This document shows, in pieces, positions 21,850 through 54,367 of a stretch of 64,000 nucleotides of DNA. The notes under the pieces are model-generated. The model searched no databases. It was given only the letters and a program-made list of their open reading frames with translations, and was not told the origin of the DNA. Position numbers and translations under genes: made by a program. Positions within the stretch are counted from its first letter, which is position 1. Each line of letters opens with the position of its first letter. This stretch comes from Patescibacteria group bacterium. GTDB lineage: Bacteria > Patescibacteriota > Patescibacteriia > JBDRGY01. The stretch spans positions 8,690 to 72,689 of the forward strand of contig JBDRGY010000014.1 in NCBI GenBank assembly GCA_043817315.1, written 5' to 3'.

Positions 21850-22629
21850 ATGCCAGAAGAAAATATAAACCACCCCCCAAAGCAAGTAGAAGATATTTTT
21901 GAAGATGTGGATCAAAGTCCAGTTGCGGCTGGACCTCCGCCAGCTCCACCAGTTTCACCAGCAGAACCAGTATCTACTCCACCCGCTCAGCCGATGTCAG
22001 CTCCAGCTGCCCCCAAACAAGATGTTGGTTTTCCCTCTCCTGTGGCGGGCGGAACTCCCAAACCACCCAAAATTCCTATGTCATCCGGGCTCAGATGGAT
22101 AATCATAATTGTGGTGGGTGTAGCCATAATCATTTTGGGCTTAGGTGTTTATTATTATTTTGTGAGACAGACTGAAAATGATAATATTAATAATGTTAAT
22201 GACAACCTTAACTCGACAACGGCCAGTGTCAATACCAACTTGAACACAAACCTAAACACCAATGTCAACGGGAATGTTAACCAGAACACCAATCAGACAG
22301 TTACCAATCTAAATCAAAACACCAACCTTAACATCAACACTAATACCAATGTCAATACTAATACCAACCTTAATGCCAACACCAACCAGGCCCCAGACCA
22401 AGATCAAGACGGATTGACTGATGCTGAAGAAAAGCAGTTGGGAACTGACCCCGAAGTTGTTGATTCAGACGGTGACGGGTTATATGATTATGAGGAAGTG
22501 AAAATTTATACCACGGATCCCTTGGACGCAGACACAGACGGTGATGGTTTCGAAGATGGTCAAGAAGTGCAAAATGGTTACAATCCCAAAGGTGATGGTA
22601 AAATTATAAATACCAACATTAATAGCTAA
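21850..22629 (+). CDS. Membrane-anchored protein with a Pro-rich N-terminus, an N/T-rich linker and thrombospondin type-3-like Asp-rich calcium-binding repeats
   Basis: TM helix IIIIVVGVAIIILGLGVYYYFV, NTNLNTNVN repeats, and DQDQDGLTDAEEKQLGTDPEVVDSDGDGLYDYEE...DADTDGDGFEDGQEVQNGYNPKGDG. Confidence 0.5.
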   Translation: MPEENINHPPKQVEDIFEDVDQSPVAAGPPPAPPVSPAEPVSTPPAQPMSAPAAPKQDVGFPSPVAGGTPKPPKIPMSSGLRWIIIIVVGVAIIILGLGVYYYFVRQTENDNINNVNDNLNSTTASVNTNLNTNLNTNVNGNVNQNTNQTVTNLNQNTNLNINTNTNVNTNTNLNANTNQAPDQDQDGLTDAEEKQLGTDPEVVDSDGDGLYDYEEVKIYTTDPLDADTDGDGFEDGQEVQNGYNPKGDGKIINTNINS

Positions 22630-22646
22630 ATAAAAGGAAAAAGATA

Positions 22647-24302
22647 ATGGCATTTTCTGATGAAAACAAACAAGATAGTCTAGGCTCCACTCCTCTAGGG
22701 CCCGGCCAGAGCGTCCAGCCCGATATTGAGGGAGGAGACTTTGAGCTTCCCACGCCCCCCAGCCAGGAAGATGATAGAGCAGAGGAACCGGTTCAAAGGG
22801 CAGCAGTTGGTACGGTTTCGGAGCCAATAATGCACACTATGCCCAGTAAGTTTTTATCAGGAAAGTCCAGCAAGGGAAGCGAGCAGAAGAAAAAGGGTTC
22901 ACCCAAGAAAATCATTATATGGGGCGCAATTATTTTTGTCGTCCTGGTTGGTCTAGTTTTGGGAGCCATCCTTCTGTTTAATAACGCAGTCAATACAAAT
23001 AACGTTAATAGTAATGTGACAGTTAATGCCAACAGCAATTCGACAGGTCAGTTGGATCGGGCAGCGGTGGTCAAGGAAATTGATGCCGACGATAGCCTGG
23101 CCGGCTATTTGTCGGACAATAACTGCATTTCGGTGAATGAAGATCTGAGCGGTTACATCGCCAAAATGGTAGAAGTGCGCTTGGGAATTATTAACGATTA
23201 TATTGCTTATGATGGTTCTGGTTTGTCAGTCAGCATGCTAAGAAGCTCTTATCCTACTGGCACTTTTATTTCCACATTTAAGTTGTATGCCAAAGGAAAC
23301 GGATACGAAGTTCCCGATATGGAAGATTTTTGGTATGTGGGCATGACCTTTGGTGATACCTGTAATAAACAAGTAGAAGTTTGGGTTGACCTCGACCAAC
23401 CTGACCAGGTCTATTACGGTGATTTGCACGATTCTGAGGATTGGATTATGACCAATGTCGGTACCAACACCAACACCAATCAGAATGTTAACGCGAATAG
23501 CAACATAAACCAAAACACTAATACCAATCAGAATAGTAATACCAACACCAACGTCAATCTAAATACCCCGGTTTCCGACAGCGAGGACACTGATAACGAC
23601 AGCCTGACCGATGTAGAGGAAATTGCCTACGGTACTCAGGACAATTTGCCCGATACTGATGGTGATGGTTACACCGATGGCACCGAGGTGCAAAATGGTT
23701 ATAACCCCAAAGGCAGCGGTTCTTTGTCCAGCTCTGATTTGGTTGAGACTTATACCAATGATGTCCAAAACTACACTATTTTGTATCCTCGCGCCCTCCT
23801 AGATCAACCTACCAGCGTAGAAACAAAAAAAGAAGTTGTTTTCTTGGCGCCTTCCGGCGAGTTTATTGAAGTAACGGTCCAAGATAACCCCTCTCAGCTG
23901 GCTGCCTCGGCCTGGTATATGGCTCGTAATCCAGGAGTCGATATGACTACTCTAGATAGTATTACCGTAAACGGGCTGAAGGGAATTCTCAGTCCTGATA
24001 AATTAGCTGCCTACTTGGCCCAAGATGAAAAAATCTTTGTCATATCATATGATCGAGGCACCAAGACAGAAATCGGCTATCGCACCACTTTCAAAATGAT
24101 GTATAAAAGTTTTGTGGCAGAATCAGTACCTATTAACAGCAATACTAATCAAAATCTGAATACCAATATTAATACCAATTCCAACAGCAATGTAAATACC
24201 AATACTAACAGTAATTCCAACACCAACACCAATACCAACACCAATACCAATACCAACACCAACTCAAACATTAATCAAAACAGCAACACTAATTCCTTGT
24301 AG
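22647..24302 (+). CDS. Membrane-anchored paralog-like protein with N/T-rich linkers, a globular domain and TSP3-like calcium-binding repeats
   Basis: TM helix IIIWGAIIFVVLVGLVLGAILLF, repeats DSEDTDNDSLTDVEEIAYGTQDNLPDTDGDGYTDGTEVQNGYNPKGSG, and a long C-terminal NTNTNTN tract. Confidence 0.5.
   Translation: MAFSDENKQDSLGSTPLGPGQSVQPDIEGGDFELPTPPSQEDDRAEEPVQRAAVGTVSEPIMHTMPSKFLSGKSSKGSEQKKKGSPKKIIIWGAIIFVVLVGLVLGAILLFNNAVNTNNVNSNVTVNANSNSTGQLDRAAVVKEIDADDSLAGYLSDNNCISVNEDLSGYIAKMVEVRLGIINDYIAYDGSGLSVSMLRSSYPTGTFISTFKLYAKGNGYEVPDMEDFWYVGMTFGDTCNKQVEVWVDLDQPDQVYYGDLHDSEDWIMTNVGTNTNTNQNVNANSNINQNTNTNQNSNTNTNVNLNTPVSDSEDTDNDSLTDVEEIAYGTQDNLPDTDGDGYTDGTEVQNGYNPKGSGSLSSSDLVETYTNDVQNYTILYPRALLDQPTSVETKKEVVFLAPSGEFIEVTVQDNPSQLAASAWYMARNPGVDMTTLDSITVNGLKGILSPDKLAAYLAQDEKIFVISYDRGTKTEIGYRTTFKMMYKSFVAESVPINSNTNQNLNTNINTNSNSNVNTNTNSNSNTNTNTNTNTNTNTNSNINQNSNTNSL
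24130..24298 (+). repeat. Hexanucleotide tandem repeat (AATACC/AACACC and variants) encoding poly(Asn-Thr/Asn-Ser)
   Basis: aataccaacaccaataccaacaccaataccaataccaacacc... Similar tracts occur at 22190-22390, 23461-23570, 5470-5525 and, on the minus strand, around 53650-53700. Confidence 0.6.
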
Positions 24303-29977: not shown

Positions 29978-30493
29978 ATGAAAAAAGGTCTAGTCCACAT
30001 TTATACAGGAAACGGAAAAGGAAAGACTACAGCTGCCCTGGGCTTAGCCTTAAGGGCCCTGGGACATAAACAGAAAGTTTGCCTGATTCAGTTTATGAAG
30101 AAGGGTAGTTACGGCGAACTGCGCTCCTTGCAGAAGTTACAGGGGATTACAATAAGACAGTTCGGCACCTCTCAGTTGATCAAAAAGGGCAAAGTAACTG
30201 ATAGAGACAAGAAAGAAGCAGCCGCCGCCCTTAGGTTCGCTGCCAAAACCATCAGTCAAAAGTTTGACCTGGTGATCCTAGATGAAATAATTGTAGCTAT
30301 CCACTTTGGACTGATAGAAGAGCCAAAGGTACTTGAGCTAATTAAGGAAAAACCAAAAACCCTAGAGTTGGTCTTGACAGGACGTAAAGTTTCTGCTAAG
30401 ATAATATCTACCGCTGATTTAGTGACGGAAATGAAGGAAATCAAGCATTATTACCGCCAAGGAGTTACCGCCAGAAAGGGCATAGAATACTAG
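29978..30493 (+). CDS. cobO: Cob(I)alamin adenosyltransferase, CobA/CobO/BtuR family
   Basis: P-loop VHIYTGNGKGKTTAALGLALRALG. The ATG at 29978 is preferred over the track start at 29921, which overlaps the nrdJ 3' end. Confidence 0.75.
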   Translation: MKKGLVHIYTGNGKGKTTAALGLALRALGHKQKVCLIQFMKKGSYGELRSLQKLQGITIRQFGTSQLIKKGKVTDRDKKEAAAALRFAAKTISQKFDLVILDEIIVAIHFGLIEEPKVLELIKEKPKTLELVLTGRKVSAKIISTADLVTEMKEIKHYYRQGVTARKGIEY

Positions 30494-30509
30494 CATCATT
30501 AACAAATAA

Positions 30510-30685
30510 GATAAGGGAAACCGGTGTATCCTGTCATTCGGCAGGAGAGTCCGGTGCGGTCCCGCCACTGTAATCTCGTCTCTTCCTGGGAGGGAAGGAG
30601 GAACCCATTAACCAGCAAGCCACTGTCCGCTCCAGGCGGATGGGAAGGCGGTTAAAGGGACGGGGAAGCCAGGACACCTAAGTTT
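30510..30685 (+). promoter_or_regulatory. Cobalamin (B12) riboswitch aptamer
   Basis: AAGGGAAACCGGTGTATCCTG, then GGTGCGGTCCCGCCACTGTAATC (the conserved CCCGCCACUGU core), then a B12-box-like GAAGCCAGGACACCTAAG, which is the RF00174 arrangement. A decisive test is cmsearch with RF00174. Confidence 0.7.
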
Positions 30686-30696
30686 TTCTCTCTACC

Positions 30697-30755
30697 TTCG
30701 GTCGAAAGGTAAAGCAATTTAGAGACCTTGCTTAAACCGAAGTAAGGTTTTTTTA
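30697..30755 (+). terminator. Riboswitch expression platform: alternative hairpins ending in a terminator-like stem plus U-tract
   Basis: TACCTTCGGTCGAAAGGTA hairpin. CTTCGGT can alternatively pair with ACCGAAG, which is followed by GGTTTTTTT. Confidence 0.4.
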
Positions 30756-30768
30756 AAGGATTAAAGAA

Positions 30769-31233
30769 ATGAAACACAATCTGAAATTTCTCTTTATCAC
30801 TGTCATTGTAGCTGCTGCTGGTTTGGCTGTTATCGGAGGAACCAGTATTCAGGTTAGCAATCAATTAGCAACACTGGTTGACGATGAAGTCGGCCCAATC
30901 GGGGCAGTTGCTGGAGCAGCTGTCAAGGGCCAAGCCAGCTTTATCATCAACTTTGGTGACAAGAGTCGCAGTTTCCAGTTTGAGGTGGATCAGAAAACAA
31001 CTGCCTATCAGTTATTACAAAGGGCCAGCATCAGAGAAAACCTGGTTTTAGAAACTGAAGAGTATAAGGATCTGGGCACAATCGTTGACGGCATCAGCGA
31101 TTACAAAGGCGGCCAAGATGACAATTACTGGATACTGTATGTCAATGGTAAAATGGCCCAAGCTGCTATTGATAAAACCATGGTCAACCCCGACGACAAA
31201 GTGGAACTACGATTTGAACCGAGTCCCTATTAA
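30769..31233 (+). CDS. Secreted DUF4430-like (transcobalamin-like) putative B12-binding protein
   Basis: Signal peptide. The C-terminal YWILYVNGKMAQAAIDKTMVNPDDKVELRFE matches the DUF4430 pattern. It lies directly downstream of the B12 riboswitch. Confidence 0.5.
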   Translation: MKHNLKFLFITVIVAAAGLAVIGGTSIQVSNQLATLVDDEVGPIGAVAGAAVKGQASFIINFGDKSRSFQFEVDQKTTAYQLLQRASIRENLVLETEEYKDLGTIVDGISDYKGGQDDNYWILYVNGKMAQAAIDKTMVNPDDKVELRFEPSPY

Positions 31234-38401: not shown

Positions 38402-38435
38402 AAGGTCTCTTATATAAGAGACCTTTTTATTTTTG
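38402..38435 (+). terminator. Rho-independent terminator (perfect 24-nt palindrome plus T-tract)
   Basis: AAGGTCTCTTATATAAGAGACCTT followed by TTTATTTTTG. Confidence 0.55.
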
Positions 38436-38531
38436 TTGACAATTCTAATCAATATTGTAAGCTATGGTCAGACGGGACAAGATCATTGGCCCGTTTTTCA
38501 ATTGCCAGCTAAATATTTTAAAGCCAGCTTA

Positions 38532-39962
38532 ATGGGGTTTATCTTAGGAACGGGGCTGGCTTCTTTTTATTCGCTTGATCACCAGATGTTGTATCTGCTC
38601 GTTGGCTTGGGATTAGTTTTTTTGATTCCCCAAAGAAGCAGAATGATCGGATTGGTCCTTATTCTAGCTAGTCTAGCAGTTTTTAGATGGCAGCTGGTGG
38701 CCGACCCAGACCTCTCTTCAGAATATGACAAGGAGGTAAGTTTTACGGCCACAATTGACAGGGAGGTGGATTTAAGACTGAACCAGCAACGTTTAACGGT
38801 ATTGGCTAAAGAATATAACACTCATTTTTTGATTACCACCTACTTATATCCCAGATTCTCCTACGGTGATCAACTAGAAATCAGCGGCAGGTTGCAAGAG
38901 CCTGAAGCCTTTTCCGATTTCGATTACCAAGGTTATTTAGAGCGCTACGGTATTCACGGTATCATTTATCGTCCTTGGATTGAAAAAACTGGAGAAGACA
39001 GCTCGTTTCGGAGATACTTGTTTCAATTTAAGGGCCTGGTCAAGAACAAATTAGACCAGTATCTTGTGGAACCGACCAGTTCTTTGGTCAAAGCCATTAT
39101 TCTGGCAACTAAAGGAACTGTACCCTCGGAAATAAAAGAGAATTTCAGCAAAGCTGGAACCAGCCACATTATTGCCATTTCCGGAATGCACATTACCATC
39201 ATATCTGGATTAATATTAAACCTTCTATTGGGAGCGGGCCTAAATCGCAAGCAGGCCTTTTGGGCAGCTACTCTGATACTGCTTATCTATCTGTTTATCA
39301 TTGGTTTTCCGGCTTCAGCAGTCAGGGCAACTTTTATGGGTTTTTTAGTGATGTGGGCTATGTATTTGGGTCGGCTCAATAATTCCCTAAACGCCATTCT
39401 ATTAACTGCTTCAGTAATGTTGCTGTTAAACCCCAGGTTATTGAGAAACGATATTGGCTTTCAGCTTTCTTTTGCTGCTGTTATTGGCATAATATACTTC
39501 AAACCCTGGTTCGATAAACTTTTCGAGAAGTTATCCAGCCGTTTTCAGATCAAGGAAGCGATTGCCATGACTTTAGCGGCTCAGGTCACTACCTTTCCCT
39601 TAATAATTTACTATTTTGATAGGTTTTCTCTGGTGGCACCCCTGGCCAATATCTTAGTGGTGCCGGTTTTGCCCTTTATATTGATTTTGGGCATCGTCGG
39701 TATCGGTCTCAGTTTTATAATTCCCTTTTTGGCTCCAGTGGTTTTTGGAACGCTGTCTCTGTTGGTCACCTATGTGATTAAAGTAATTGAACTTCTGAGT
39801 GGCTTTTCATTTTCATACATGATGGTTGATAATTTTACGGGTACACATATTCTTGTGTCCTATTTTGTAGTTTCTACTGGACTTCTGCTTATAAATAAAT
39901 ATAGACGTAGACAGATAACCATTGCGAGCCCCGACGAGGGGCGTGACAATCCCGATAATTAG
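38532..39962 (+). CDS. comEC: ComEC/Rec2 N-terminal part (DUF4131 plus the competence channel domain), separate ORF
   Basis: DUF4131-like OB region followed by a polytopic competence domain with TSHIIAISGMHITII. The ATG at 38532 is preferred because the track start at 38433 overlaps the upstream terminator and promoter. Confidence 0.7.
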   Translation: MGFILGTGLASFYSLDHQMLYLLVGLGLVFLIPQRSRMIGLVLILASLAVFRWQLVADPDLSSEYDKEVSFTATIDREVDLRLNQQRLTVLAKEYNTHFLITTYLYPRFSYGDQLEISGRLQEPEAFSDFDYQGYLERYGIHGIIYRPWIEKTGEDSSFRRYLFQFKGLVKNKLDQYLVEPTSSLVKAIILATKGTVPSEIKENFSKAGTSHIIAISGMHITIISGLILNLLLGAGLNRKQAFWAATLILLIYLFIIGFPASAVRATFMGFLVMWAMYLGRLNNSLNAILLTASVMLLLNPRLLRNDIGFQLSFAAVIGIIYFKPWFDKLFEKLSSRFQIKEAIAMTLAAQVTTFPLIIYYFDRFSLVAPLANILVVPVLPFILILGIVGIGLSFIIPFLAPVVFGTLSLLVTYVIKVIELLSGFSFSYMMVDNFTGTHILVSYFVVSTGLLLINKYRRRQITIASPDEGRDNPDN

Positions 39963-40264: not shown

Positions 40265-41167
40265 ATGGGATTGCTTCGTCACTACGCTCCTCGCAATGGT
40301 AATGAATTAAAAATGAACAGCCCAAAAAAATTATTAATAATCATTATTATCCTGACTGCCCTGGGTATGGCCGCTTGCCTTTTTCTTTACCAAGAAAAGG
40401 AAAAGTTGTTGGAAGTAGTTTTTATGGACGTGGGTCAAGGCGATGCCATTTTGATAAAAACTCCTTACGATCAGCAAATCTTAATAGACGGGGGGCCAGA
40501 CAACCAGGTGCTTCAGAAATTGGGTCAGCATATGCCTTTTTGGGACCGCTCGATTGATCTGTTGATCTTGACTCATCCCCATTCTGATCACGTGGGCGGC
40601 TTGCCAGCAGTTATGGATCGCTATCAGGTTGAGCAGATATTTTATACGGGTGTACTGCATACCTCACCCGATTATTTAGCTTGGTTGCAAAAGATAGAGG
40701 AGCAAGCCGTCGATCTAAAAATTACCAAATCAGGTGACAGAGTTAATTTAGGTAACGATCTTTATTTAGACACTTTATTTCCCCTGGAGGATTACACTAA
40801 CCAAGAAGTGGAGGATTTGAACGGGACTTCTGTTGTTAATAAATTGGTTTACGGCCAACACGCCTTCTTGCTGACCGGCGATTTACCCGCGGAGCAGGAA
40901 CTGGCAGTTTTGAACCAGGGAATCAATGTGACCGCTGACGTTTTAAAAGTAGGACATCATGGATCCAAATATTCTTCTTCTTCAGAATTCTTGTCAGACG
41001 TCGACCCTCAATACGCCATTGTTCAAGTGGGCCAAGACAACAAATTTGGTCATCCTCATCTGGTTGCTTTAAACAATATAGAGAGTTCGGGGGCGGTGAT
41101 TCTGCGTAGTGATAAATTGGGTGATATTAAATGCCAATCAGACAAATCGGTTTTATCTTGTTTCTAG
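40265..41167 (+). CDS. ComEC C-terminal metallo-beta-lactamase domain protein (separate ORF with its own TM anchor)
   Basis: DVGQGDAILIK, LILTHPHSDHVGG and KVGHHGSKYSS. The alternative start MNSPKK is at 40313. Confidence 0.75.
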   Translation: MGLLRHYAPRNGNELKMNSPKKLLIIIIILTALGMAACLFLYQEKEKLLEVVFMDVGQGDAILIKTPYDQQILIDGGPDNQVLQKLGQHMPFWDRSIDLLILTHPHSDHVGGLPAVMDRYQVEQIFYTGVLHTSPDYLAWLQKIEEQAVDLKITKSGDRVNLGNDLYLDTLFPLEDYTNQEVEDLNGTSVVNKLVYGQHAFLLTGDLPAEQELAVLNQGINVTADVLKVGHHGSKYSSSSEFLSDVDPQYAIVQVGQDNKFGHPHLVALNNIESSGAVILRSDKLGDIKCQSDKSVLSCF

Positions 41168-41187: not shown

Positions 41188-41865
41188 ATGGCGGAAAGTG
41201 AAAAAATCGATCAGGCAATTAGACCTTGGTATTTAAAGGGCTGGGGCTTGGTTTTTTCCATAGCCTTGATAGCTGTTTTGATCTGGCTGATCGGCCTGGT
41301 AATGTGGCTTTATAACCCTTTTGCTGAGTTGGGAGGAACCAGCCGGCAAGCGGTTAATCCCCTGAGTGTTGATGAAGATGATGATCCGGCCTGGGGAAGT
41401 GTCTATGCCAAAGTGACCATTATCTCCTTTGAGGATTACACCTGCCCGGTTTGCGGTGAGGCCTACGAGGCTATAAAACAGATACGGGAAAACTACTACG
41501 ACGATGTATATATTGTCTTCCGCGATTTCCCTATTTTGGGTCCGACTTCTACCACAGCGGCTTTGGCAGCGGAGTGTGCCGAGGATCAAGGGAAATTTTG
41601 GGAGATGCACGATAAGCTTTTTGAGAACCAAACTTTAATTTCTGAAGAATACGTAAAAGCTTTTGCAGCCCAAATCGGTCTGGATTTGAACACCTTTACT
41701 GATTGTTTGTACGACAACGAGCATCGGGCCGAGATCCAAAGTGATTTAAGTGAAGGTATTGCGGCCGGAGTTGAGGGGACACCGACTTGGTTTATTGAAG
41801 GAACCAGGTTAGAGGGGGCGATTCCTTACGAGGTTTGGGAACAAATAATAGATAGTTATATATAA
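41188..41865 (+). CDS. Membrane-anchored thioredoxin-fold DsbA-like thiol:disulfide oxidoreductase
   Basis: TM anchor and a CPVC active site (YTCPVCGE). Confidence 0.65.
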   Translation: MAESEKIDQAIRPWYLKGWGLVFSIALIAVLIWLIGLVMWLYNPFAELGGTSRQAVNPLSVDEDDDPAWGSVYAKVTIISFEDYTCPVCGEAYEAIKQIRENYYDDVYIVFRDFPILGPTSTTAALAAECAEDQGKFWEMHDKLFENQTLISEEYVKAFAAQIGLDLNTFTDCLYDNEHRAEIQSDLSEGIAAGVEGTPTWFIEGTRLEGAIPYEVWEQIIDSYI

Positions 41866-43786: not shown

Positions 43787-44554
43787 ATGAATGAAGGATC
43801 ACCAGAAGGAAAAGGTATTTTCAAAAACCCATCGAAACAAACCTTTTTACTGGGTTTATTCATAGGCATTTCGGTCATCACAACCTTTGCCTTTTTCTTT
43901 ACCCTGGCCATGGCTTTAGACAATGGTTCCCTGGGTGGAGACGATGCCAAAGTGGCTGATAGCGGCAACGTAGCTGGTCAACAGGATGCCGTCGTAGATC
44001 CTGCTGCTGGGGTTGCTCCCACTCCCACTCCTACTCCAGTTGACATCGAACAGATCGTTAGCCTGGATGGAGCTCACATCAAAGGAGCCGAGAACGCTAC
44101 TGTTACCATGATCGAGTATTCTGATTTTGAGTGTCCTTACTGCTCAAAGCACCAGGAAACTCTAACTCAGATTTTAGATGAATATCCCAACGACGTCAGA
44201 TTAGTTTATAAACATTTCCCCTTGTCTTTTCATGCCAACGCCCAAAAGGCCGGTGAAGCCTCTGAATGTGCCGGTGATCAAGACAAATTTTGGGAGATGC
44301 ACGACCTGATCTATGCCGCTGAAGCCTTCAGTATCGATACCTTCAAACAGTTTGCCAAAGATCTGGGTCTGGATACCAGCAAGTTTAACACTTGTTTGGA
44401 TGACGGTACTCACGCTTCCACAGTGCAATCTGACATGGTAGAGGGACAAGCCGCCGGAGTCGAAGGAACTCCAGCCACCTTTGTAAACGGCACCCTAATC
44501 TCAGGTGCTATTCCCTACGATTCTTTCAAGGCGGTTATCGATGCCGAGCTCTAA
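43787..44554 (+). CDS. DsbA-like thioredoxin-domain protein (secreted/anchored)
   Basis: CPYC active site (FECPYCSKH) and an N-terminal TM helix. Confidence 0.7.
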   Translation: MNEGSPEGKGIFKNPSKQTFLLGLFIGISVITTFAFFFTLAMALDNGSLGGDDAKVADSGNVAGQQDAVVDPAAGVAPTPTPTPVDIEQIVSLDGAHIKGAENATVTMIEYSDFECPYCSKHQETLTQILDEYPNDVRLVYKHFPLSFHANAQKAGEASECAGDQDKFWEMHDLIYAAEAFSIDTFKQFAKDLGLDTSKFNTCLDDGTHASTVQSDMVEGQAAGVEGTPATFVNGTLISGAIPYDSFKAVIDAEL

Positions 44555-45322
44555 ATGATTCCCTGGTTTCAATTCACACAGTTTTCCATAGGACCCCTGA
44601 CCATCCAGGTCTGGGGTCTTTTTCTGGCCCTAGCTTTTTTGGTCAGCATCATCGCCAGTGGCTATGAATTAAAAAGAAAAGGTTTGCAGCATCGGATAAT
44701 CTTGGATCTATCAGTCTGGGTAATCATTGGAGCTATTGTGGGCGGCCGCTTGTTCTATGTTCTTAATGAGTGGTCCCGGTTCCAAGAGCAGCTGGTTGAT
44801 ATCTTCAAATTGTGGCAAGGAGGCATGGCCTTGTACGGTGGAGTGATTGGCGGCAGTCTTGCTGCTTGGCTTTTTATCAAACGCAAGAAACTGAAGTTCG
44901 GACCTTATGCTGATGCTGTTTTGTTTACTCTTCCCTTGGGGCTCTTTGTCGGCAGGATTGGTTGTCTGATGATTCACGATCATCTGGGTTCAGTGACCAC
45001 AGTGCCTTGGGGCATAGAGTATTTAGGGCAGGTGAGACACGAAACTGCTTTATACAGCCTGGTACTCAATTTAGTCTTGTTTATAGTCTTATTCTTTCTG
45101 CGCAAAGCCAAGTTTAATTTTACCGGTTTAGTTTCTTCAATATTCCTGATTGGTTACGGTTTGGGGCGCTTTGTTATTGATATTTTTAGGGCTCAGGATT
45201 TGCCCTTTTCTGATCCCAGATTTGGCGGTTTAACCCCTTCACAGTATGTTAGTATTTTACTAGTGATTATGGGGATCTGGTTATGGATCAGGATAAAGAA
45301 ACAGAGATTAGACGACAAGTAA
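44555..45322 (+). CDS. lgt: Prolipoprotein diacylglyceryl transferase
   Basis: Similarity to E. coli Lgt: FSIGP..W.G, GGRLFYVL, W.GGMALYGG.IG and GRIGC. Confidence 0.75.
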   Translation: MIPWFQFTQFSIGPLTIQVWGLFLALAFLVSIIASGYELKRKGLQHRIILDLSVWVIIGAIVGGRLFYVLNEWSRFQEQLVDIFKLWQGGMALYGGVIGGSLAAWLFIKRKKLKFGPYADAVLFTLPLGLFVGRIGCLMIHDHLGSVTTVPWGIEYLGQVRHETALYSLVLNLVLFIVLFFLRKAKFNFTGLVSSIFLIGYGLGRFVIDIFRAQDLPFSDPRFGGLTPSQYVSILLVIMGIWLWIRIKKQRLDDK

Positions 45323-45343
45323 TAAGAGAATAGCTAATATTAG

Positions 45344-45366
45344 ACTCCGACATTGGAGTTTTTTTG
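45344..45366 (+). terminator. Rho-independent terminator after lgt
   Basis: ACTCC-GACAT-TGGAGT followed by TTTTTTT. Confidence 0.5.
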
Positions 45367-45403
45367 GTTTTGGTCCTACAATTTAGCTGTCTGGGCTCTA
45401 GCC

Positions 45404-45432
45404 TTGACAAATAGGCGTTTTTGTGATAGTAT
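45404..45432 (+). promoter_or_regulatory. Consensus sigma70 promoter (TTGACA-17-TAGTAT) driving the GC-rich cassette
   Basis: TTGACA at 45404-09, a 17-nt spacer, and TAGTAT at 45427-32. A 130-nt leader with two hairpins follows, then GGAGG and an ATG at 45568. Confidence 0.5.
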
Positions 45433-45567
45433 GGCCTGTTAACCTGAGGCAGATTCTAGCCTCTGGCTGACCTACCTGTGAATTAGGTAGTTGTTTAGTA
45501 CATTGACAACCTGTTCTGAGTGAGATAACGAAAGCAAACAGAGCCAAGGACGAGAGGAGGTAGTACC

Positions 45568-46908
45568 ATGATTGCGGCATTTATTGCCCTGTCGGGACTG
45601 GTAGCGGCGGCGATCTACATCGTTGCCTACTACATTCCCAAGCAGAATGGTGATTTCGAGGCCCCCCCGTTACCGCCCCTGAAGACCGAGGGTGTCGATG
45701 GAGCTGATGGCGACGAGCTTACCCCCGAGTACCTCGAGAATGAAGTCGAAGCCCTTCTGACTGAGTTACTGGGAGAAGAAGCGGCTAAGGGAGTCAACTT
45801 GATTCCGCCCAAAACACCGGCTTATCGTGAGGGGTCGATTCCCAAGAAAGCCTGTCATTACCGGGTCGGTGGCAAGTGGACTCTGCTGATTCTCTGGATG
45901 GCCGCTGGTCTGTTCCCGCTGGTCGGTTGGCTGACTCGTGGTGGTATGGGAGCTGGAATCGGGGTATTGATTTCGGTATTCGGCTACTACGTCGTCAGCA
46001 ACTACAGCTATGGTAAGAACGATGCTCAAATCTATCGGGGAGTTGAATTCCTTGGTGATCCAGCTGCCATTGTGCCACCTGGACCCTTCTTCCTGCATCC
46101 TTTCGTGGAGAAGCTGGCTCCACGGGTGGCCAATACCAGGCTGCTTAGTATCAACAAGATCCTGGAAGATGTGCACAGCCGCGGAGCTATCCCGGCCCAC
46201 ATCCAGCTGGGGCTGATGGCCCAGATCGTCAATTCGCCACGGGCCATTGCCGCCTATGTCTGGGGTTTCCAAGGCGATGACGTATCGGCAATGTTGCAGT
46301 CGGTGCGTTCGGCCACTACGGACTTTGTCGGTCAGATTCACTTGATTGACATGTCCAGGCTGCAGTCCTTGCTCCAGATGTTCACCATGTGGTATCTGCG
46401 CTGCCTGCGTTTCTACGAGCGTCTTGGCATCGAAGTGATCATGCCTGAGTACATGGGTTACATCCCTGACGGCGACGAGTATCAAACTGCTCTGTCCGCC
46501 AAGCAGGTCAAGACCCATGAAGGCGAAGGCGTGATTGCTATGGCCGAGAAGCAGAAGGCAGCGGATAAGTTCGCTGGCGAAGGACGTGAGTCCTACTTGA
46601 CTGCTGAAGCTAAGGGTGAGCAGGCGTTGGCCGAGGCGTTGGTCGGAGTCTATAAAGACCCCACCATTGCCGAACGTCACGTCGATCATCGAGGCCGCAA
46701 CACCGCTCTGCTGGCTGCCCAGGATAATGAACGAGTGATTCTGATGTCGGACAACTCTGGTGGTGAGTCTGGCGGCTTGGCAGCCGGTGCCCGGAAGTCA
46801 CTCATGTTCAAGATAATTGGTGACGTGGTCAAGAGAAACCTCCAGGATGCCGGGATTCTTCCCAAGTCCGACGACGATGATCACGCTGCCATCTCTGGTG
46901 CTGAGTAG
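45568..46908 (+). CDS. SPFH/band-7 (stomatin/prohibitin/flotillin-like) membrane protein, high GC
   Basis: N-terminal TM helices, an SPFH-like core (PFVEKLAPRVANTRLLSINK...IPAHIQLGLMAQIVNSPRAIAAYVWGF) and a flotillin-like C-terminus (EAKGEQALAEALVGV). The gene is about 57% GC. Confidence 0.45.
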   Translation: MIAAFIALSGLVAAAIYIVAYYIPKQNGDFEAPPLPPLKTEGVDGADGDELTPEYLENEVEALLTELLGEEAAKGVNLIPPKTPAYREGSIPKKACHYRVGGKWTLLILWMAAGLFPLVGWLTRGGMGAGIGVLISVFGYYVVSNYSYGKNDAQIYRGVEFLGDPAAIVPPGPFFLHPFVEKLAPRVANTRLLSINKILEDVHSRGAIPAHIQLGLMAQIVNSPRAIAAYVWGFQGDDVSAMLQSVRSATTDFVGQIHLIDMSRLQSLLQMFTMWYLRCLRFYERLGIEVIMPEYMGYIPDGDEYQTALSAKQVKTHEGEGVIAMAEKQKAADKFAGEGRESYLTAEAKGEQALAEALVGVYKDPTIAERHVDHRGRNTALLAAQDNERVILMSDNSGGESGGLAAGARKSLMFKIIGDVVKRNLQDAGILPKSDDDDHAAISGAE

Positions 46909-46953
46909 TATCTAATCGGGGGCGCCCTCGGACGCCCCCACTAACACTAAGAG

Positions 46954-48120
46954 GTGATAACTATGGCCAAAGGACCGAAGAAACAGAAAGGCCAGCAGGT
47001 AGTCAAGCCACCCGAGGTACCGAAAGGTCCTGATCGAGTTCAGCAGAAGCTGGTGCGCAAGAGGACTGAAGTTGACACAGACACTCGGGTCGGTTCCGTC
47101 GAAGAAAAGACGGAAATCACAAGATCCAAGGGTTCAACTATACTGGTTCGTCTGGCGCTTCTGGCCGGTATCCTGCTGATACTGTTTCGTGAAGGATCCT
47201 GGGTGATCAAGGGATGGCCGGTACCTGTTGGTCTGATCTGGGGCGTGGCCGTGCTTATGGCCCTGATCATGCTACTGCCTCTGATTCCCAAGAAGGCCGG
47301 CAAGAAGTTCAGCTTCCCCATGGCAGCAGTGGCCGGAATCGTCTTTCTGTTGGCGATGCTGGCTATACCATTGCTGATAGCTCCGGACCAGGTCGATACC
47401 CTCTGGACCGAGGCTCGCAACTGGCTGTATGCTATTGTGGGGATCACTGTGATCGGGGCGGTCTGTAGTACCCTGACCAAGAAGAAGGCCTATCTGGTCT
47501 TCGGAGTGATCATCTCAGTGGGCTTACTGATCTATGGACCACTGCCCATCCTGACAGCGGGACAGGCAGGCAAGTCGGTAATCAGTGAGGCCCCCACCTA
47601 CTCCAGATATCTGTGTGAGGACATCACCAAGGACGGAGCCATCTGGGCCAAAGAGGTCCGGATTTCTCCGCTGCCTGATGGTGAAGCTCTGGAGATCCTG
47701 ATCAACAAGAGGGACGCCGGCAACTGGCTGATGCTGCAGACCAAGACGGGTCTAGTAGACGTTGGCGACGGCCTGTTTGGTCCTCGGGGCAATCCAGACA
47801 AGGACCCCTACGTCGACAGTACGTTCGATCGTAGCAAGGCCGGTCTGGAAGCCCGTGTCTGTTCCAGTGAGGCAGCTGCCATCACCTGGTTCATGCACAA
47901 GCGAGCGGCTCCTGGTGTGTTCACCAGTCGTATCGTCAGGAAGGACATCCCGGTAGTCATCGCCATTCTGGAAGAGTGGTTCGACAAAGCAGGCTCTGAT
48001 AACATCACCCTGTGGCTGCGGATCGTTCACCGTCCTGAGGAATGTAATGACGGTAACGACCGTGGTTCTTTCACCGCTCACGTCTGGATGGCAGAGGAGC
48101 CGCCGATCGGTTCTTCGTAA
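46954..48120 (+). CDS. Membrane protein with four TM helices and a soluble C-terminal domain, possible NfeD-like partner of the SPFH protein, high GC
   Basis: 388 aa. Same GC-rich cassette and likely co-transcribed. No recognisable motif. Confidence 0.4.
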   Translation: MITMAKGPKKQKGQQVVKPPEVPKGPDRVQQKLVRKRTEVDTDTRVGSVEEKTEITRSKGSTILVRLALLAGILLILFREGSWVIKGWPVPVGLIWGVAVLMALIMLLPLIPKKAGKKFSFPMAAVAGIVFLLAMLAIPLLIAPDQVDTLWTEARNWLYAIVGITVIGAVCSTLTKKKAYLVFGVIISVGLLIYGPLPILTAGQAGKSVISEAPTYSRYLCEDITKDGAIWAKEVRISPLPDGEALEILINKRDAGNWLMLQTKTGLVDVGDGLFGPRGNPDKDPYVDSTFDRSKAGLEARVCSSEAAAITWFMHKRAAPGVFTSRIVRKDIPVVIAILEEWFDKAGSDNITLWLRIVHRPEECNDGNDRGSFTAHVWMAEEPPIGSS

Positions 48121-48141
48121 CACTCAGAAACAGGTTCATTG

Positions 48142-48174
48142 AGGGAGCGCCTTGTGTGCTCCCTCTTTTCTTTT
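48142..48174 (+). terminator. Rho-independent terminator closing the GC-rich cassette
   Basis: AGGGAGC-gccttgtgt-GCTCCCT followed by CTTTTCTTTTCC. Confidence 0.55.
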
Positions 48175-48228
48175 CCCAAAAAAACCAATTTCCGTTATAA
48201 TTAGATTATAATTTCTAATCATAAAAAA

Positions 48229-51200
48229 ATGAGAAAACAACTTAGTTTTGTAGTAATGATTAGTCTGATTGCTACTTTTTTCCCCCTGACTGATTCTCAA
48301 GCCACTTACGGTGATGTTTCTAAATATTTAGGCCACATTTATGCCGGAGATGGGGGAACAGCTGCTGCCGCCTATTTTGATTTCCCGGAAGATATCGAAG
48401 TAGATAGCTCTGGGAATTTTTTTGTTGCTGATACCTATAATAACGTTATCCGTAAAATTAGTTCTGCAGGAACTGTTTCCACCTTAGCCGGCACTGGCTC
48501 TTACGGCCTGACCAATGGGGCTACTACCGCTGCTGAATTTGCCCTACCTCGAGGAATAACCATTGATGCCTCGGGCAATATCTATGTGGCTGATACTGCC
48601 AACAATGCCGTCAGGAAAATCGCTGGCAGTACAGTGACCACCTTGGTCGGCGAAGGCTTATCAGCCCCTGAAGGCTTGATTATATATGGCTCCACTTTGT
48701 ATATAGCTGATACTGGTAACGATGCTATTAAATCAGTGTCCACGGCTGGCGGCACAGTAACCACCTTGGCTGGTTCTGGATTAAGTTCACCCAAGAAACT
48801 AGAAGTAGCAGCAGACGGAAGTTTGCTCTATGTTTCTGATGCCGGTAGTTACCGGGTATTAAAAGTTAACATTAGTACCGGAACGGTGTCTGTTTTGGCT
48901 GGCTCGGGTACAGCTGGCTATGCTGAAGGAACAGGCACAGCTGCCCAGTTTGAAAACATCTGGGGAGTGGAGTTGTATGGTGATTATCTTTATGTTGCCG
49001 ACGGGGATGGTTTTGATGACATGATCCGTAAGATAAATGTAACTACCGGAGAAACTTCTTCGTTTGCCACTGACAGCAATATGATGGCCATCAATTTCGG
49101 AGCAGGGCTACGGGTCTATAATGGCTATATTTATTTATGTAACCAGGGAATAGGAACTATTCATAAATTCAACGTGGACGATGATTCCGATAATGAAACC
49201 TTTGCTGGCTATGAGCGCTTTGGCCATCGAAACGGTACTAACCCACTTTTCGGCCGACCTCATGATATGGCGATGACTCAGGACGGTACCACTTTCTATT
49301 TAGCCGACAATAATAAGATAAGGAAGATTGTTAAAGCAACAGGAAATACCACCTATGTGACGGGTTCATCTGTTGACAACTACCGGGAAGGCTTGCCGGT
49401 AGGAGCCCCGGGCGGTATCGGTGCTGAAGCCCGCTTTTCCACTATTGCCTCAGTTGCGGTTAATAACGCGGGCACTGCTCTTTATCTGGTGGATCGCTGG
49501 AATAACCGGGTGCGCAAGGTTGATTTATCCGACCCTGATTATCAAACATACTTAATTTCAGGCGCTGGGCGAATTAATACCACTGGCACCCAGAGAAATG
49601 GTTATCAGGAAGGAATTAAGTGCGATTCGGTCAAAAATAAAGATGAATCATTTACCAAGCAATCGGGCTGTGCCTACTTTGATAATCCGGCTGGTATTGT
49701 TATCTCTCCTGATAATGCTTATTTGTATGTTTCTGACACCAACAACCAAAGAATCAGAAAGGTGAGAATTGCTGATGGTCAAACTTCTTTAGTGGCCGGT
49801 TCGGGCACAGCAGGCTACTTAAATGGGGAGGCTACCACTGCCCAGTTCCATACGCCCTACGGCTTAACCATAGATGCAAACGGAGATTTTCTTTATGTGG
49901 CTGATAGAGACAATCATGTCATTAGAAAAATAGACACAGCAACTGGTTTTGTTTCCACTCTGGCGGGCAAGGGCAGCGCTGGATATCTAGACGCCATTGG
50001 CACCTCGGCCTATTTTTCCTATCCGGAATATATCAAAATGGGAGCCGATGGTAATTTGTATGTAACTGAAGTTGGTTCGCAACGAGTCAGAGTAATTGAT
50101 ACGGTATCTGGTGACACCAGGCTAGTAGCCGGATCAGGCTACCGGGGTTATAAAAATGGGGCTAAAGAAGAAGCTGAATTCAATAATCCGGAAGGGTTGG
50201 TACCAGATACCGCTAATAATTCTGTTTATGTATTGGATTCTTGGAACGATGTGATCCGCCAGGTCGATATCGAAGGGGAAATCCCTCACACCGAACCGGC
50301 TCCGACAGTGACCGCTGTGATTCCTGATTTTGTAGAGCCCAAATGGGATGACGGTAGTGGGTTACGGGTAAGGATTACTGGTACCAATTTCCGACACGGA
50401 GCCGTTACTCATTTTTATACTTATCAAGCCTCAGCCACTTATGTGGTTTCCGACACAGAATTGGTAGCCGAATTACCCCTATCACAAATGTCAGCCGGCT
50501 ATTATGATGTGACAGTAACCAATTTGGACGGTCAAGCCGCTTATCTGTCCAAAGGGATAGGAATTTCTGATAATCTGGGCAATGTGCCAGGGGAACACTT
50601 CTCGGTACCGGGAGCGGAGACTGAGGAAGCGACAGAAGTAAGCATTGCCCCGGGTAACAGCTTTTATGCTTATTCGGAAACGATTCGGGGTGGCTTTTAT
50701 GTAGCTGTGGGTAATGTCCAGGGAGATGGACGGGAGGAAATTCTTACCGGCACCGGCATTGGGTTAGGTCCCCAGGTGAGAATATTTGATTTAGAGGGAG
50801 GTTTAAAAACCACTTTCTTTGCCTATGCGGAACATCTGCGATCAGGAGTCAGAGTGGCAGTGGGGGACCTAAACGGTGATGGTTACAATGAAATAATAAC
50901 AGCCCCAGGTCCGGGAGGCCGGCCCCATATCAGGACTTTTTCAGGAGACGGACAAGCCCTAAATGCCGGATTTTTCGCTCTGGATGGGCAGTTCCAGGGG
51001 GGTGCCTTCGTAGCCTGTGGAGATGTAAACGGTGACGGGCAAGATGAAATTATAGTGACAGCTGGTCCGGGAGGTGGACCCCACGTTACTGTCCACAATG
51101 GAGATGGTGATCTTTTAGCCACTTTCTTTGCCTATGACCAGCATACTTTCCGTTATGGTATTCGTCCTGCAGTTTTAGACGTCGATGGTGACGGCCATAT

Positions 51201-51591
51201 GGAGATTCTTACCGGACCGGAAACCGGATCACCACACATTCAAACCTTTCAAATTAGGCCGGGTGAAATCAGACAACTCAATCCAGGTTTTTACGCATAT
51301 GACCCAGATTACAAAGGAGGAGTAGCAGTGACCGGTGGTGATATGGACGGTGACGGAGCTGATGAGATTATTGCTGGAGTGGGTGATGCCGCCTCTCCAC
51401 TGGTTAGATTGTTTTACAGTGATGGGTCCGGATATCTCCGTAAAGAGTTTTACGCTTATCCCACTACATTTTTATCAGGAGTCAATGTGGCCTCAGGTGA
51501 TGTTGATGGTGATGATATTGATGAAGTAATAACTTCTCCTCGGGCTGATGGGGGTCCTCAAATCAGGATTATTGAAGTTGATCGATTATAA
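48229..51591 (+). CDS. Secreted NHL-repeat beta-propeller / IPT-TIG / FG-GAP repeat protein (1120 aa)
   Basis: Signal peptide. Several NHL repeats (SGNFFVADTYNNVIRKI, SGNIYVADTANNAVRKI, YLYVSDTNNQRIRKV), an IPT-like domain (PTVTAVIP...RVRITGTNF), and at least five C-terminal FG-GAP/VCBS-like repeats (GDLNGDGYNEIITAPGPGG, GDVNGDGQDEIIVTAGPGG). Confidence 0.7.
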   Translation: MRKQLSFVVMISLIATFFPLTDSQATYGDVSKYLGHIYAGDGGTAAAAYFDFPEDIEVDSSGNFFVADTYNNVIRKISSAGTVSTLAGTGSYGLTNGATTAAEFALPRGITIDASGNIYVADTANNAVRKIAGSTVTTLVGEGLSAPEGLIIYGSTLYIADTGNDAIKSVSTAGGTVTTLAGSGLSSPKKLEVAADGSLLYVSDAGSYRVLKVNISTGTVSVLAGSGTAGYAEGTGTAAQFENIWGVELYGDYLYVADGDGFDDMIRKINVTTGETSSFATDSNMMAINFGAGLRVYNGYIYLCNQGIGTIHKFNVDDDSDNETFAGYERFGHRNGTNPLFGRPHDMAMTQDGTTFYLADNNKIRKIVKATGNTTYVTGSSVDNYREGLPVGAPGGIGAEARFSTIASVAVNNAGTALYLVDRWNNRVRKVDLSDPDYQTYLISGAGRINTTGTQRNGYQEGIKCDSVKNKDESFTKQSGCAYFDNPAGIVISPDNAYLYVSDTNNQRIRKVRIADGQTSLVAGSGTAGYLNGEATTAQFHTPYGLTIDANGDFLYVADRDNHVIRKIDTATGFVSTLAGKGSAGYLDAIGTSAYFSYPEYIKMGADGNLYVTEVGSQRVRVIDTVSGDTRLVAGSGYRGYKNGAKEEAEFNNPEGLVPDTANNSVYVLDSWNDVIRQVDIEGEIPHTEPAPTVTAVIPDFVEPKWDDGSGLRVRITGTNFRHGAVTHFYTYQASATYVVSDTELVAELPLSQMSAGYYDVTVTNLDGQAAYLSKGIGISDNLGNVPGEHFSVPGAETEEATEVSIAPGNSFYAYSETIRGGFYVAVGNVQGDGREEILTGTGIGLGPQVRIFDLEGGLKTTFFAYAEHLRSGVRVAVGDLNGDGYNEIITAPGPGGRPHIRTFSGDGQALNAGFFALDGQFQGGAFVACGDVNGDGQDEIIVTAGPGGGPHVTVHNGDGDLLATFFAYDQHTFRYGIRPAVLDVDGDGHMEILTGPETGSPHIQTFQIRPGEIRQLNPGFYAYDPDYKGGVAVTGGDMDGDGADEIIAGVGDAASPLVRLFYSDGSGYLRKEFYAYPTTFLSGVNVASGDVDGDDIDEVITSPRADGGPQIRIIEVDRL

Positions 51592-54038: not shown

Positions 54039-54116
54039 GGACCGGTGGTGTAGCCCGGTTAACACGCCTCCCTGTCACGGAGGAGATCGAGGGTTCAAAT
54101 CCCTTCCGGTCCGCCA
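54039..54116 (+). tRNA. tRNA-Asp (anticodon GUC)
   Basis: Acceptor GGACCGG/CCGGTCC, D-stem GTGT/ACAC, anticodon stem CCTCC/GGAGG with loop CTGTCAC, T-arm GAGGG-TTCAAAT-CCCTT, discriminator G, and an encoded CCA. Confidence 0.85.
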
Positions 54117-54255
54117 CCATTTTCCAAACACTGTCTCCCTGCTTGCCCCGCAGAACGAAACGCTAGTGAAGCTTCTTGCGGGGTCACGGATAAAATTGTG
54201 GGTTCTCCGCCACTTAAATTTTATGTTAATGTACGGCGGATCCCCCGCAGGGGGA

Positions 54256-54276
54256 AAATCCCTTCCGGTCTGCCAC
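54256..54276 (+). repeat. Partial copy of the 3' part of tRNA-Asp (T-loop, T-stem and acceptor 3' strand, one mismatch)
   Basis: AAATCCCTTCCGGTCtGCCAC against AAATCCCTTCCGGTCcGCCAC in the tRNA. It is preceded by a CCCCCGCAGGGGG hairpin. Confidence 0.45.
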
Positions 54277-54367
54277 TAGTTTCAAACCCACAGCCGCCCT
54301 TGCCCGTCCCATAGGACTGAAAAATTGAATAAATTTTCATTAAATAATTTAACATTAATAATCAAAT

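Follow-up and report, generated by a model that had tools for sequence, protein, structure and literature searches.

Why should two adjacent genes be so much richer in guanine plus cytosine (GC) than everything around them? The question is raised by a cassette in a 64,000-nucleotide stretch of the Patescibacteria contig JBDRGY010000014.1 (assembly GCA_043817315.1, positions 8,690 to 72,689 of the forward strand), which we call the window and whose own numbering is used throughout. The cassette consists of gene 1 (g1; 45568..46908, + strand), encoding a 446-residue SPFH/Band-7-like protein, and gene 2 (g2; 46963..48120, + strand), encoding a 385-residue multi-pass membrane partner. It is flanked on the left by lgt, the gene for prolipoprotein diacylglyceryl transferase (44555..45322, +), and on the right by a gene for an 1120-residue surface protein with NHL/FG-GAP repeats (48229..51591, +). 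An earlier interpretation of this stretch from its letters alone, the sequence-only reading, had taken the cassette to be likely horizontally acquired, possibly from a high-GC donor, for example an actinobacterium. We consider it probable that the cassette is a resident, fast-evolving and recombining two-gene envelope operon, whose alleles are exchanged among related Patescibacteria, and that it was not imported recently from a high-GC phylum.

The compositional shift reported in that reading is confirmed. The GC content of the cassette (45568-48120) is 0.559, whereas 2.6-kb windows over the 64 kb have a mean of 0.434 (sd 0.021, maximum 0.488), giving z = 5.9. On a 1-kb scale, values of 0.35-0.49 are found throughout except at 46001-48000, where they are 0.555-0.562. 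The tetranucleotide distance of the cassette from the rest of the window corresponds to z = 7.1, and the tetranucleotide correlation normalised for base composition is 0.40, compared with a mean of 0.82 (z = -8.1). GC and third-position GC (GC3) are 0.558 and 0.635 in g1, and 0.559 and 0.650 in g2, outside the ranges of the other 47 open reading frames (ORFs) of the window (GC 0.35-0.50, GC3 at most 0.558); GC at the first and second codon positions is elevated in both genes as well. The proposed check by sliding-window GC and tetranucleotide usage therefore places the anomaly far beyond the variance of the window, with an overall GC of about 56% where about 57% had been given. The change had been located directly after the lgt terminator. 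The shift is real, but at 200-nt resolution GC starts to climb near 45500-45560 (about 45540, where the ribosome-binding site lies), stays at 0.53-0.595 within the cassette and falls back at about 48150, and the promoter and leader (45367-45540) have a host-like GC of 0.40-0.46.

Three contigs from the ENA, obtained from two other samples, belong to the same species as the window and reproduce its junctions independently. Two of these (L042 and L043), at 99.6-99.7% identity, span the ABC transporter, DsbA and lgt genes and continue into g1, and the third (L001), from a second strain of the species, crosses from g1 through g2 into the NHL gene. Because three independent assemblies span both junctions, a chimeric assembly is ruled out.

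The sequence-only reading suggested looking for sister genomes in which the cassette is absent from the lgt/NHL junction. We find it there in sister species (L002 and L041), as well as in the two further assemblies from the window's own species. Locus L002 (JAIWBS010000009.1) is filed under a Pirellulales metagenome-assembled genome; its contig is 99.98% identical to that of L046 (JAUWVJ010000010.1, assembly GCA_030617445.1) and syntenic with the Patescibacteria window, and the Pirellulales assignment is probably a mis-binning. L046 has the same gene order as the window, GlmS-ComEC-metallo-beta-lactamase (MBL)-DsbA-DsbA-Lgt; it and L051 come from the same strain as L002 and contribute no new variation. 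In L002, lgt is directly followed by an SPFH gene (g1'), and then come its partner (g2'), a further gene (g3) and the NHL gene. The GC contents of g1' and g2' are 0.545 and 0.526 and their GC3 values 0.58 and 0.62, in surroundings of about 0.40 GC. Locus L041 carries a partner gene (g2'', GC3 0.64), g3 and an NHL gene whose product is 69% identical to that of the window; its partner protein is 44% identical to that of L002. In a more distant relative (L040/L047; NHL protein 53% identical to the window's, host GC about 0.50), the genes for ComEC and MBL are followed by an SPFH gene, two envelope genes and the NHL gene in L047, with GC3 values of 0.59-0.62 for the three and 0.47-0.58 for their neighbours. 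Across the clade, host GC ranges from 0.40 to 0.50 while that of the cassette remains at 0.52-0.56. An unplaced contig of 1.8 kb (L039) with 54.5% GC also carries a relative. The cassettes of the window and L002 correlate in tetranucleotide usage at r = 0.63, each correlates with its own host at 0.40 and 0.33, respectively, and the two hosts correlate at 0.92; the likeness of the two cassettes comes in part from GC3 itself and calls for caution. More distant lgt loci (L003-L038, from Falkowbacteria, Magasanikbacteria, Uhrbacteria and others) are without the cassette family.

The additional gene g3 of the sister species, placed between cassette and NHL gene (6877-8427 in L002, 1191-2744 in L041 and 66-1619 in a further locus, L044), encodes a polytopic membrane protein of 516-517 residues. 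It follows a promoter which itself comes after the cassette terminator, its GC of 0.35-0.41 is at or below that of the host, and it has no Pfam or NCBIfam match; the window is without it.

Protein searches for a donor gave a narrow answer. A word-indexed search of 5.8 billion proteins returned for g1 only its own NCBI record and for g2 one protein of 97% identity. A full HMMER (phmmer) search with g1 of 1.84 billion cluster representatives returned two matches, g1 itself (P0001) and one relative (P0003; 30% identity, E = 5e-14). No cassette relatives were found in IMG/VR, a GenBank phage set or the PLSDB plasmids, one Joint Genome Institute (JGI) metagenome scanned with a g1 profile gave no match, and neither cassette protein matched the PHROG or PADLOC libraries (for PADLOC-DB 2.0, at E <= 0.1). 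Exact look-ups with the Lgt, NHL and g1 proteins of the window found none of them recorded. All detectable relatives belong to this small clade or to short unplaced contigs, and none comes from a high-GC phylum. Relatives drawn entirely from one low-GC lineage were among the outcomes that the sequence-only reading had set against itself, along with a composition shift within ordinary variance; the former is what we see, and the shift lies well outside.

Comparison of the window with L002 reveals how differently the cassette and its surroundings have evolved. The flanking proteins remain similar (Lgt 74%, DsbA 63% and NHL protein 79% identical), whereas the g1 products are 31% identical, over the SPFH core only, and the g2 products 21% (E = 4e-5). 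The cassette genes have a non-synonymous divergence (pN) of 0.50-0.52, the flanking genes one of 0.13-0.20. Synonymous divergence (pS) in the flanks is 0.73-0.84, that is, saturated. Flanking synonymous sites have thus fully turned over, and yet GC3 is still about 0.6 in both cassettes; one old transfer whose composition has yet to ameliorate is therefore not a sufficient explanation.

Within the species, the window and L001 are nearly identical apart from two sharply bounded tracts. The first of these (46537..46914, + strand) covers g1 codons 324-446 and reaches the intercistronic hairpin; amino acid identity there is 39%, pS is 0.82 and pN 0.39, and there are in-frame indels of 3 and 18 nt. 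The 60 aligned codons ahead of it are without a single difference. The second, a patch at 47578..47622 (+; g2 codons 206-220), lies just after the last transmembrane (TM) helix and has pS 0.53 and pN 0.19, and the remainder of g2 has two amino acid changes and no synonymous difference. Outside both tracts, the compared coding parts of the cassette are free of synonymous differences altogether. Against the window, L042 has 11 differing sites, grouped in small clusters, among 644 nt of the 5' part of g1 (1.8%), and 7 among 3.5 kb of upstream flank (0.2%). We conclude that both variable tracts were brought in by recombination from strongly diverged alleles, and that these alleles are GC-rich too (0.54-0.57). 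Second or silent donor copies of the tracts were not found within the 64-kb window. Hypermutation by a diversity-generating retroelement (DGR) is rejected: all base types differ, so that the substitutions are not adenine-specific as in DGR-like change, indels are present and pS is 0.53-0.82. The contigs of five assemblies terminate inside the cassette or at its edge. Assemblers typically break at polymorphic islands, and this observation is circumstantial here.

The high GC of the segment also leaves long frames open on the other strand. The antisense ORF of 307 residues noted in the sequence-only reading is present at 45766-46689, and has no counterpart in L002. Given that the antisense frame is unconserved, that the indels preserve the reading frames on the + strand and that pN is below pS in the variable tract, the + strand frames are the coding ones, and the antisense ORF is rejected as a true gene.

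The assignment of g1 to the SPFH/Band-7 family, as a highly divergent member, is supported by sequence comparison. Its product has an N-terminal TM helix (residues 1-24), an acidic/basic linker, a hydrophobic region at 104-146, the SPFH/Band-7 domain at about 157-330 and a C-terminus rich in Ala, Glu and Lys. In a hydropathy scan, the products from L002 and L039 have the same layout, with a membrane anchor formed by the two hydrophobic segments ahead of the SPFH domain. The g1 protein is related to that of L002 (BLASTP E = 2e-23) and, across the domain, to P0003, which the JGI annotates as an HflC-type protein. Both relatives exceed the Pfam gathering threshold for Band_7 (PF01145; 23.6 bits), with 30.0 bits for L002 and 24.8 bits for P0003, and the copy in the window falls just below; the family prediction of the sequence-only reading is supported. 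Among the 1.84 billion representatives, phmmer with g1 reached no canonical SPFH protein at E <= 1e-3. The SPFH neighbour in L040, which lies on the opposite strand, scores 41.9 bits against Band_7 (E = 1.4e-10) and matches the g1 profile only at E = 0.005. The tails of the g1 proteins contain NERVILMSD in the window and STVVFAS in L002, and presumably correspond in kind to the strand motif at the C-terminus of other SPFH proteins.

The partner gene had been placed at 46954-48120. The gene and its end stand, but the start is most likely the ATG at 46963, 6 nt after AGAGGTG; the GTG at 46954 sits within this Shine-Dalgarno sequence. The N-terminus is rich in Lys and Arg (14 in 54 residues) and is followed by about five hydrophobic helices (residues 55-200), where four had been counted, with short basic loops between them. 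Beyond the TM region there is, as predicted, a C-terminal domain, which is acidic and 185 residues long, and which contains 3 Cys in the window, 8 in L002 and 5 in L041. By the positive-inside rule this domain would face outward, and from this and its Cys content we regard it as probably extracytoplasmic. The two DsbA genes and lgt nearby would fit an extracytoplasmic, disulfide-bonded product. The domain is also probably beta-rich, to judge from low-confidence structure models.

The g2 protein matches no family in Pfam, NCBIfam, PHROGs or PADLOC. NfeD (PF01957) is not among its matches at E <= 0.1, nor is there an NfeD match at E <= 10 for its C-terminal domain or for the partners from L002, L041 and L040. 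With no profile match and a different size and architecture, an NfeD identity is rejected; of the stomatin/NfeD-like pair that had been proposed, the SPFH gene and the shared operon remain, and NfeD serves as an analogy only. A lectin fold like that of LecA/PA-IL, suggested by a motif at the C-terminus (ND..G.Y.(D/N)N.G.F.V.I), was also considered and is unsupported, with an hhalign E of 0.15 (probability 0.4%) and no Pfam PA-IL or PDB profile match. The 367-residue partner in L040 has no detectable homology to g2.

The two genes form one operon with a single promoter and a single terminator, and the description of a discrete unit with foreign-looking composition is borne out. The terminator of lgt itself is at 45342-45361 (+). 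The sigma-70-type promoter, TTGACA-17-TAGTAT (45404..45432, +), is as had been described, with a TG ahead of the -10 box in addition; in L002 the hexamers are kept as TTGACA-17-TAATAT, within an upstream intergenic region that is 75% identical between the two. Two small leader hairpins (45446-45463 and 45472-45490, +) have equivalents of different sequence at the same positions in L002, so that the leader is structured to this extent, but as one unit it gains nothing over shuffled sequence in folding stability (z = -0.15 for the window, and -1.0). No Rfam match, to a riboswitch or other known RNA, was found in the leader at E <= 5. A second promoter at the TTGACA in the leader was rejected for want of an acceptable -10 box in either the window or L002. 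The second hairpin and the TTGTTTAGTA that follows it (45472-45499) have a terminator-like score, whereas the L002 hairpin has no T run after it; from its sequence, this hairpin could be an attenuator. The Shine-Dalgarno sequence GGAGG (45556-45560, +) lies 7 nt before the ATG of g1 at 45568, as expected from the earlier description.

Between the genes, the predicted GC stem is found at 46918..46939 (+) as GGGGGCGCC-CTCG-GACGCCCCC, a 9-bp stem with a 4-nt loop and no T run following. It is kept in L001, with a UUCG loop and one pair more. L002 and L039 are without it, and the spacer between g1 and g2 is 18 nt there compared with 54 nt in the window. The rho-independent terminator is likewise confirmed (48141..48175, +), a 10-pair stem at 48141-48165 followed by the T run; in L001 the stem is unchanged and only the loop differs. 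A promoter-like site for the NHL gene is at 48173-48201 (+).

How might such an operon work, and why would it look as it does? By analogy with solved SPFH assemblies, in which an oligomeric ring or cage encloses a membrane client, g1 would oligomerise into a membrane-anchored ring or cage, and by analogy with stomatin-NfeD and HflK/C-FtsH, this scaffold would organise or enclose g2. With no T run after it, the hairpin between the two genes may yield more g1 than g2 product. The C-terminal domain of g2, outside the cell, would be the face under diversifying pressure. The operon would be a long-standing occupant of one slot, after lgt (or, in L047, after ComEC-MBL) and upstream of the NHL gene. 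It diverges several times faster than its neighbours and is reshuffled by recombination tracts from strongly diverged alleles, a pattern resembling that of hypervariable surface loci under pressure from phages or partner cells. Its GC-richness would be a property of the allele pool of the gene family, upheld by exchange among higher-GC relatives, by gene conversion biased towards GC at a hot spot of recombination, or by the two together. In 11 of 14 bacterial groups, genes that recombine have the higher GC3 (PMC4450053).

Several points weigh against this interpretation. The GC3 excess of 0.2 in the cassette may well exceed what recombination is usually associated with, and among the sampled genomes there is no GC-richer donor lineage bearing the cassette family. 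The alleles at hand come from two strains of the window's species and from three or four species. The g1 protein of the window scores 21.2 bits against Band_7 (E = 3.2e-4; residues 162-329 against profile positions 14-175 of 176), below the threshold, and the best hit in a PDB profile search is only to a prohibitin, at E = 0.14. The topologies of both proteins come from a crude hydropathy scan. Single-sequence AlphaFold models of g2 suggest beta strands but are unusable, with confidence (pLDDT) values of 47 and 37. Distant relatives of g2, which was searched with the word-indexed tool only, may have escaped. A link of the locus to phage or host interaction would be conjecture.

The ends of the GC-rich part carry a further feature that bears on how the locus is maintained. 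A conserved block of the leader, GTACATTGACAAcctGTTCTGAGTG (45498..45522, +), contains the core TTCTGAGTG at 45514-45522, and directly after the g2 stop codon CACTCAGAAACAGGTT (48121..48136, +) contains its inverse, CACTCAGAA, at 48121-48129. The leader block is conserved between the window and L002 as GTACATTGACAA..GTTCTGAGTG. The right-arm core occurs at the equivalent place after the conserved end of g2 in the window, L001, L002 and L041, and in L002 it falls within the annotated 3' end of the g2 ORF. In the fetched loci that bear the cassette, the 9-mer occurs at these two sites only, apart from a third copy in the window, in the ComEC gene (39793-39801); 36 unrelated loci hold three copies, as chance predicts. 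Complementarity beyond the core is species-specific: in the window it covers 15 nt, interrupted by one bulge, and in L002 12 perfect nt. The inverted repeat brackets the GC-rich part exactly, with the promoter outside and both arms inside the predicted transcript. Chance inverted pairs of such length are common, numbering 9 in the window and 6 in L002 (in a single 2.9-kb region), and the evidence for this one therefore lies in the conservation of both arms at equivalent positions; we put the chance of an inverted 9-mer shared between two short conserved blocks at roughly 5e-4. L039 and L047 are without the motif.

What other explanations might account for these observations? Recent horizontal gain of a stomatin/NfeD-like pair from a high-GC donor, as the sequence-only reading proposed, draws on the strong anomaly in GC, GC3 and tetranucleotide usage, which extends to the first and second codon positions, and on the discreteness of a unit with its own promoter and terminator. 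It is nevertheless very unlikely. Sister species hold the cassette in the same slot with the same anomaly, flanking pS is saturated, no homologue of g1 lies outside the clade among the 1.84e9 representatives, the promoter and leader are host-like in GC and conserved with L002, and g2 does not match NfeD. Neither are there hallmarks of mobility: no direct repeats flank the cassette, no tRNA gene is adjacent to it, and no integrase or transposase was found among the 30 of 49 window ORFs covered by the domain scan, all of them core or envelope genes. The same fast divergence, the mosaic within the species, the hypervariable patch just beyond the last TM helix of g2 and the narrow taxonomic range could instead describe an anti-phage or exclusion system, in which an SPFH scaffold and a membrane effector or sensor evolve in an arms race, and hypervariable islands are often tied to phage pressure (PMC3909814). 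We think this unlikely, given that the cassette proteins have no PADLOC or PHROG matches and no detected enzymatic or effector domain, that the scanned neighbours are core envelope and housekeeping genes with no defence genes among them, and that a literature search on SPFH together with anti-phage yielded no paper with either term in its title or abstract.

The inverted repeat suggests two further possibilities. Its cores, conserved at both ends in every species sampled, scarce elsewhere (the one extra copy in the window lies 5.7 kb upstream, inside ComEC), extended in a species-specific manner and bracketing the GC-rich part exactly with the promoter outside, might be site-specific recombination sites bounding a module that is invertible against a fixed promoter, as in phase variation, or exchangeable between genomes through a recombinase encoded elsewhere; the contigs that break in or at the edge of the cassette would fit this too. 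Similarly improbable is the consequence that the two genes would form an envelope cassette subject to phase variation or exchange, owing its foreign composition to circulation in a gene pool separate from any host chromosome. The module itself appears unlikely to us: the orientation is the same in all five independent assemblies (although a consensus assembly could hide a minority orientation), there is no recombinase among the 30 scanned ORFs, the mosaic tracts end within genes and not at the repeat, the motif is missing from L039 and L047, and chance inverted repeats are frequent. Somewhat less improbable, though still tentative, is a role of the repeat in RNA, with the 5' untranslated region (UTR) of the operon pairing with its 3' UTR to give exonuclease protection or a site for double-strand processing. 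Both arms would be transcribed, being placed between the -10 box and the terminator hairpin, complementarity is kept although the extra pairs differ between the window and L002, and the repeat falls within the best predicted duplex between the UTRs in both species. The energy of this duplex beats that of shuffled 3' UTRs only weakly, however (fractions 0.08 and 0.04), the 9-nt core is identical and does not covary, which fits recognition by a protein equally well, and the right arm in L002 is inside the annotated 3' end of the g2 ORF. Such pairing concerns the repeat only and is compatible with a resident operon whose alleles recombine.

The resident operon that we favour has parallels in several known systems. 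SPFH genes commonly share an operon with the gene for a membrane protein that has a soluble beta domain (PMC2636767). As in PH1511/PH1510, QmcA/YbbJ, FloT/YuaF and YqiK/YqiJ, an SPFH protein is here co-transcribed with a polytopic partner consisting of N-terminal hydrophobic helices and a soluble, apparently beta-rich C-terminal domain (PMC2636767). NfeD, however, has 140-150 residues, three hydrophobic stretches and a short all-beta C-terminus with an OB-fold (PMC2636767), whereas g2 has 385 residues, about five TM helices, a 185-residue domain with 3-8 Cys over the species and no NfeD signature, and in contrast to the stomatin/NfeD order, the partner is downstream of the SPFH gene and not upstream. 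HflK/C-FtsH and the SPFH cages resemble the arrangement in the oligomeric ring or cage that we would expect to corral a membrane client; they differ in that the present operon has no protease or other enzyme, and its only structural match is the weak one to prohibitin given above. Closest in behaviour are hypervariable surface loci, such as the O-antigen locus between galF and gnd and capsule loci, and 'metagenomic islands', which share with the cassette a fixed slot with conserved flanks (PMC2884935, PMC3715488, PMC3909814), very divergent alleles swapped by recombination, an atypical composition and fragmented assemblies. Unlike O-antigen and capsule loci, the cassette has two genes only, none of them for a glycosyltransferase, its GC is above that of the host rather than below, and it specifies a scaffold-partner pair, not a polysaccharide pathway. 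The SPFH proteins PaFlo3-9 of Pseudomonas aeruginosa are also strongly divergent, of limited phylogenetic range and in variable contexts (PMC13086221), but their genomic context is unconserved, whereas here the slot is conserved across species and the sequence diverges fast. An SPFH-partner operon that behaves as a hypervariable locus is a new context for SPFH proteins, with a partner that matches no family.

The locus carries a caution for island-calling. A sharp jump in GC together with a separate promoter and terminator is usually taken to mark a recent foreign island; here several species with saturated synonymous sites keep the same anomaly in the same slot, and anyone judging by composition alone would be misled. 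Some locus-specific force, be it allele exchange, biased gene conversion or selection, must keep the GC high, and the locus is a compact natural test case for distinguishing GC-biased conversion from import in bacteria with reduced genomes. Within this uncultured clade of Patescibacteria, it is also one of few envelope loci that are visibly hypervariable and recombining. Given its position among genes for lipoprotein processing, disulfide-bond formation and giant surface proteins, it is a candidate for determining how strains interact with phages or host cells. The inverted repeat that brackets it would be a small regulatory or recombination element.

Some features of the wider window are recorded here. 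Upstream of lgt, the ComEC gene is seemingly split, with an ORF for the Competence domain (38433-39962) and one for the metallo-beta-lactamase (40265-41167), as it is in L046 and L047. The two DsbA-like thioredoxin paralogues (41188-41865 and 43787-44554), which are 35% identical and include a 41-nt stretch of 88% identity, flank an ABC-2 exporter. At 21850-24302 there are two ORFs with long Asn/Thr-rich repeats of 6-, 12- and 18-nt periodicity (AAYACYAAY...) and with bacterial TSP3 repeats, and near them are two giant ORFs, at 5883-11021 (1712 residues) and 15558-21830 (2090 residues). A cobalamin riboswitch (Rfam RF00174, 57.9 bits) at 30471-30699 (+) lies upstream of the ORF at 30769-31233. 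To the right of the NHL gene, the last 38 nt of a tRNA (54039-54113) are repeated with 82% identity 159 nt downstream, at 54249-54286, and this repeat may have been left behind when an element once integrated at the tRNA.

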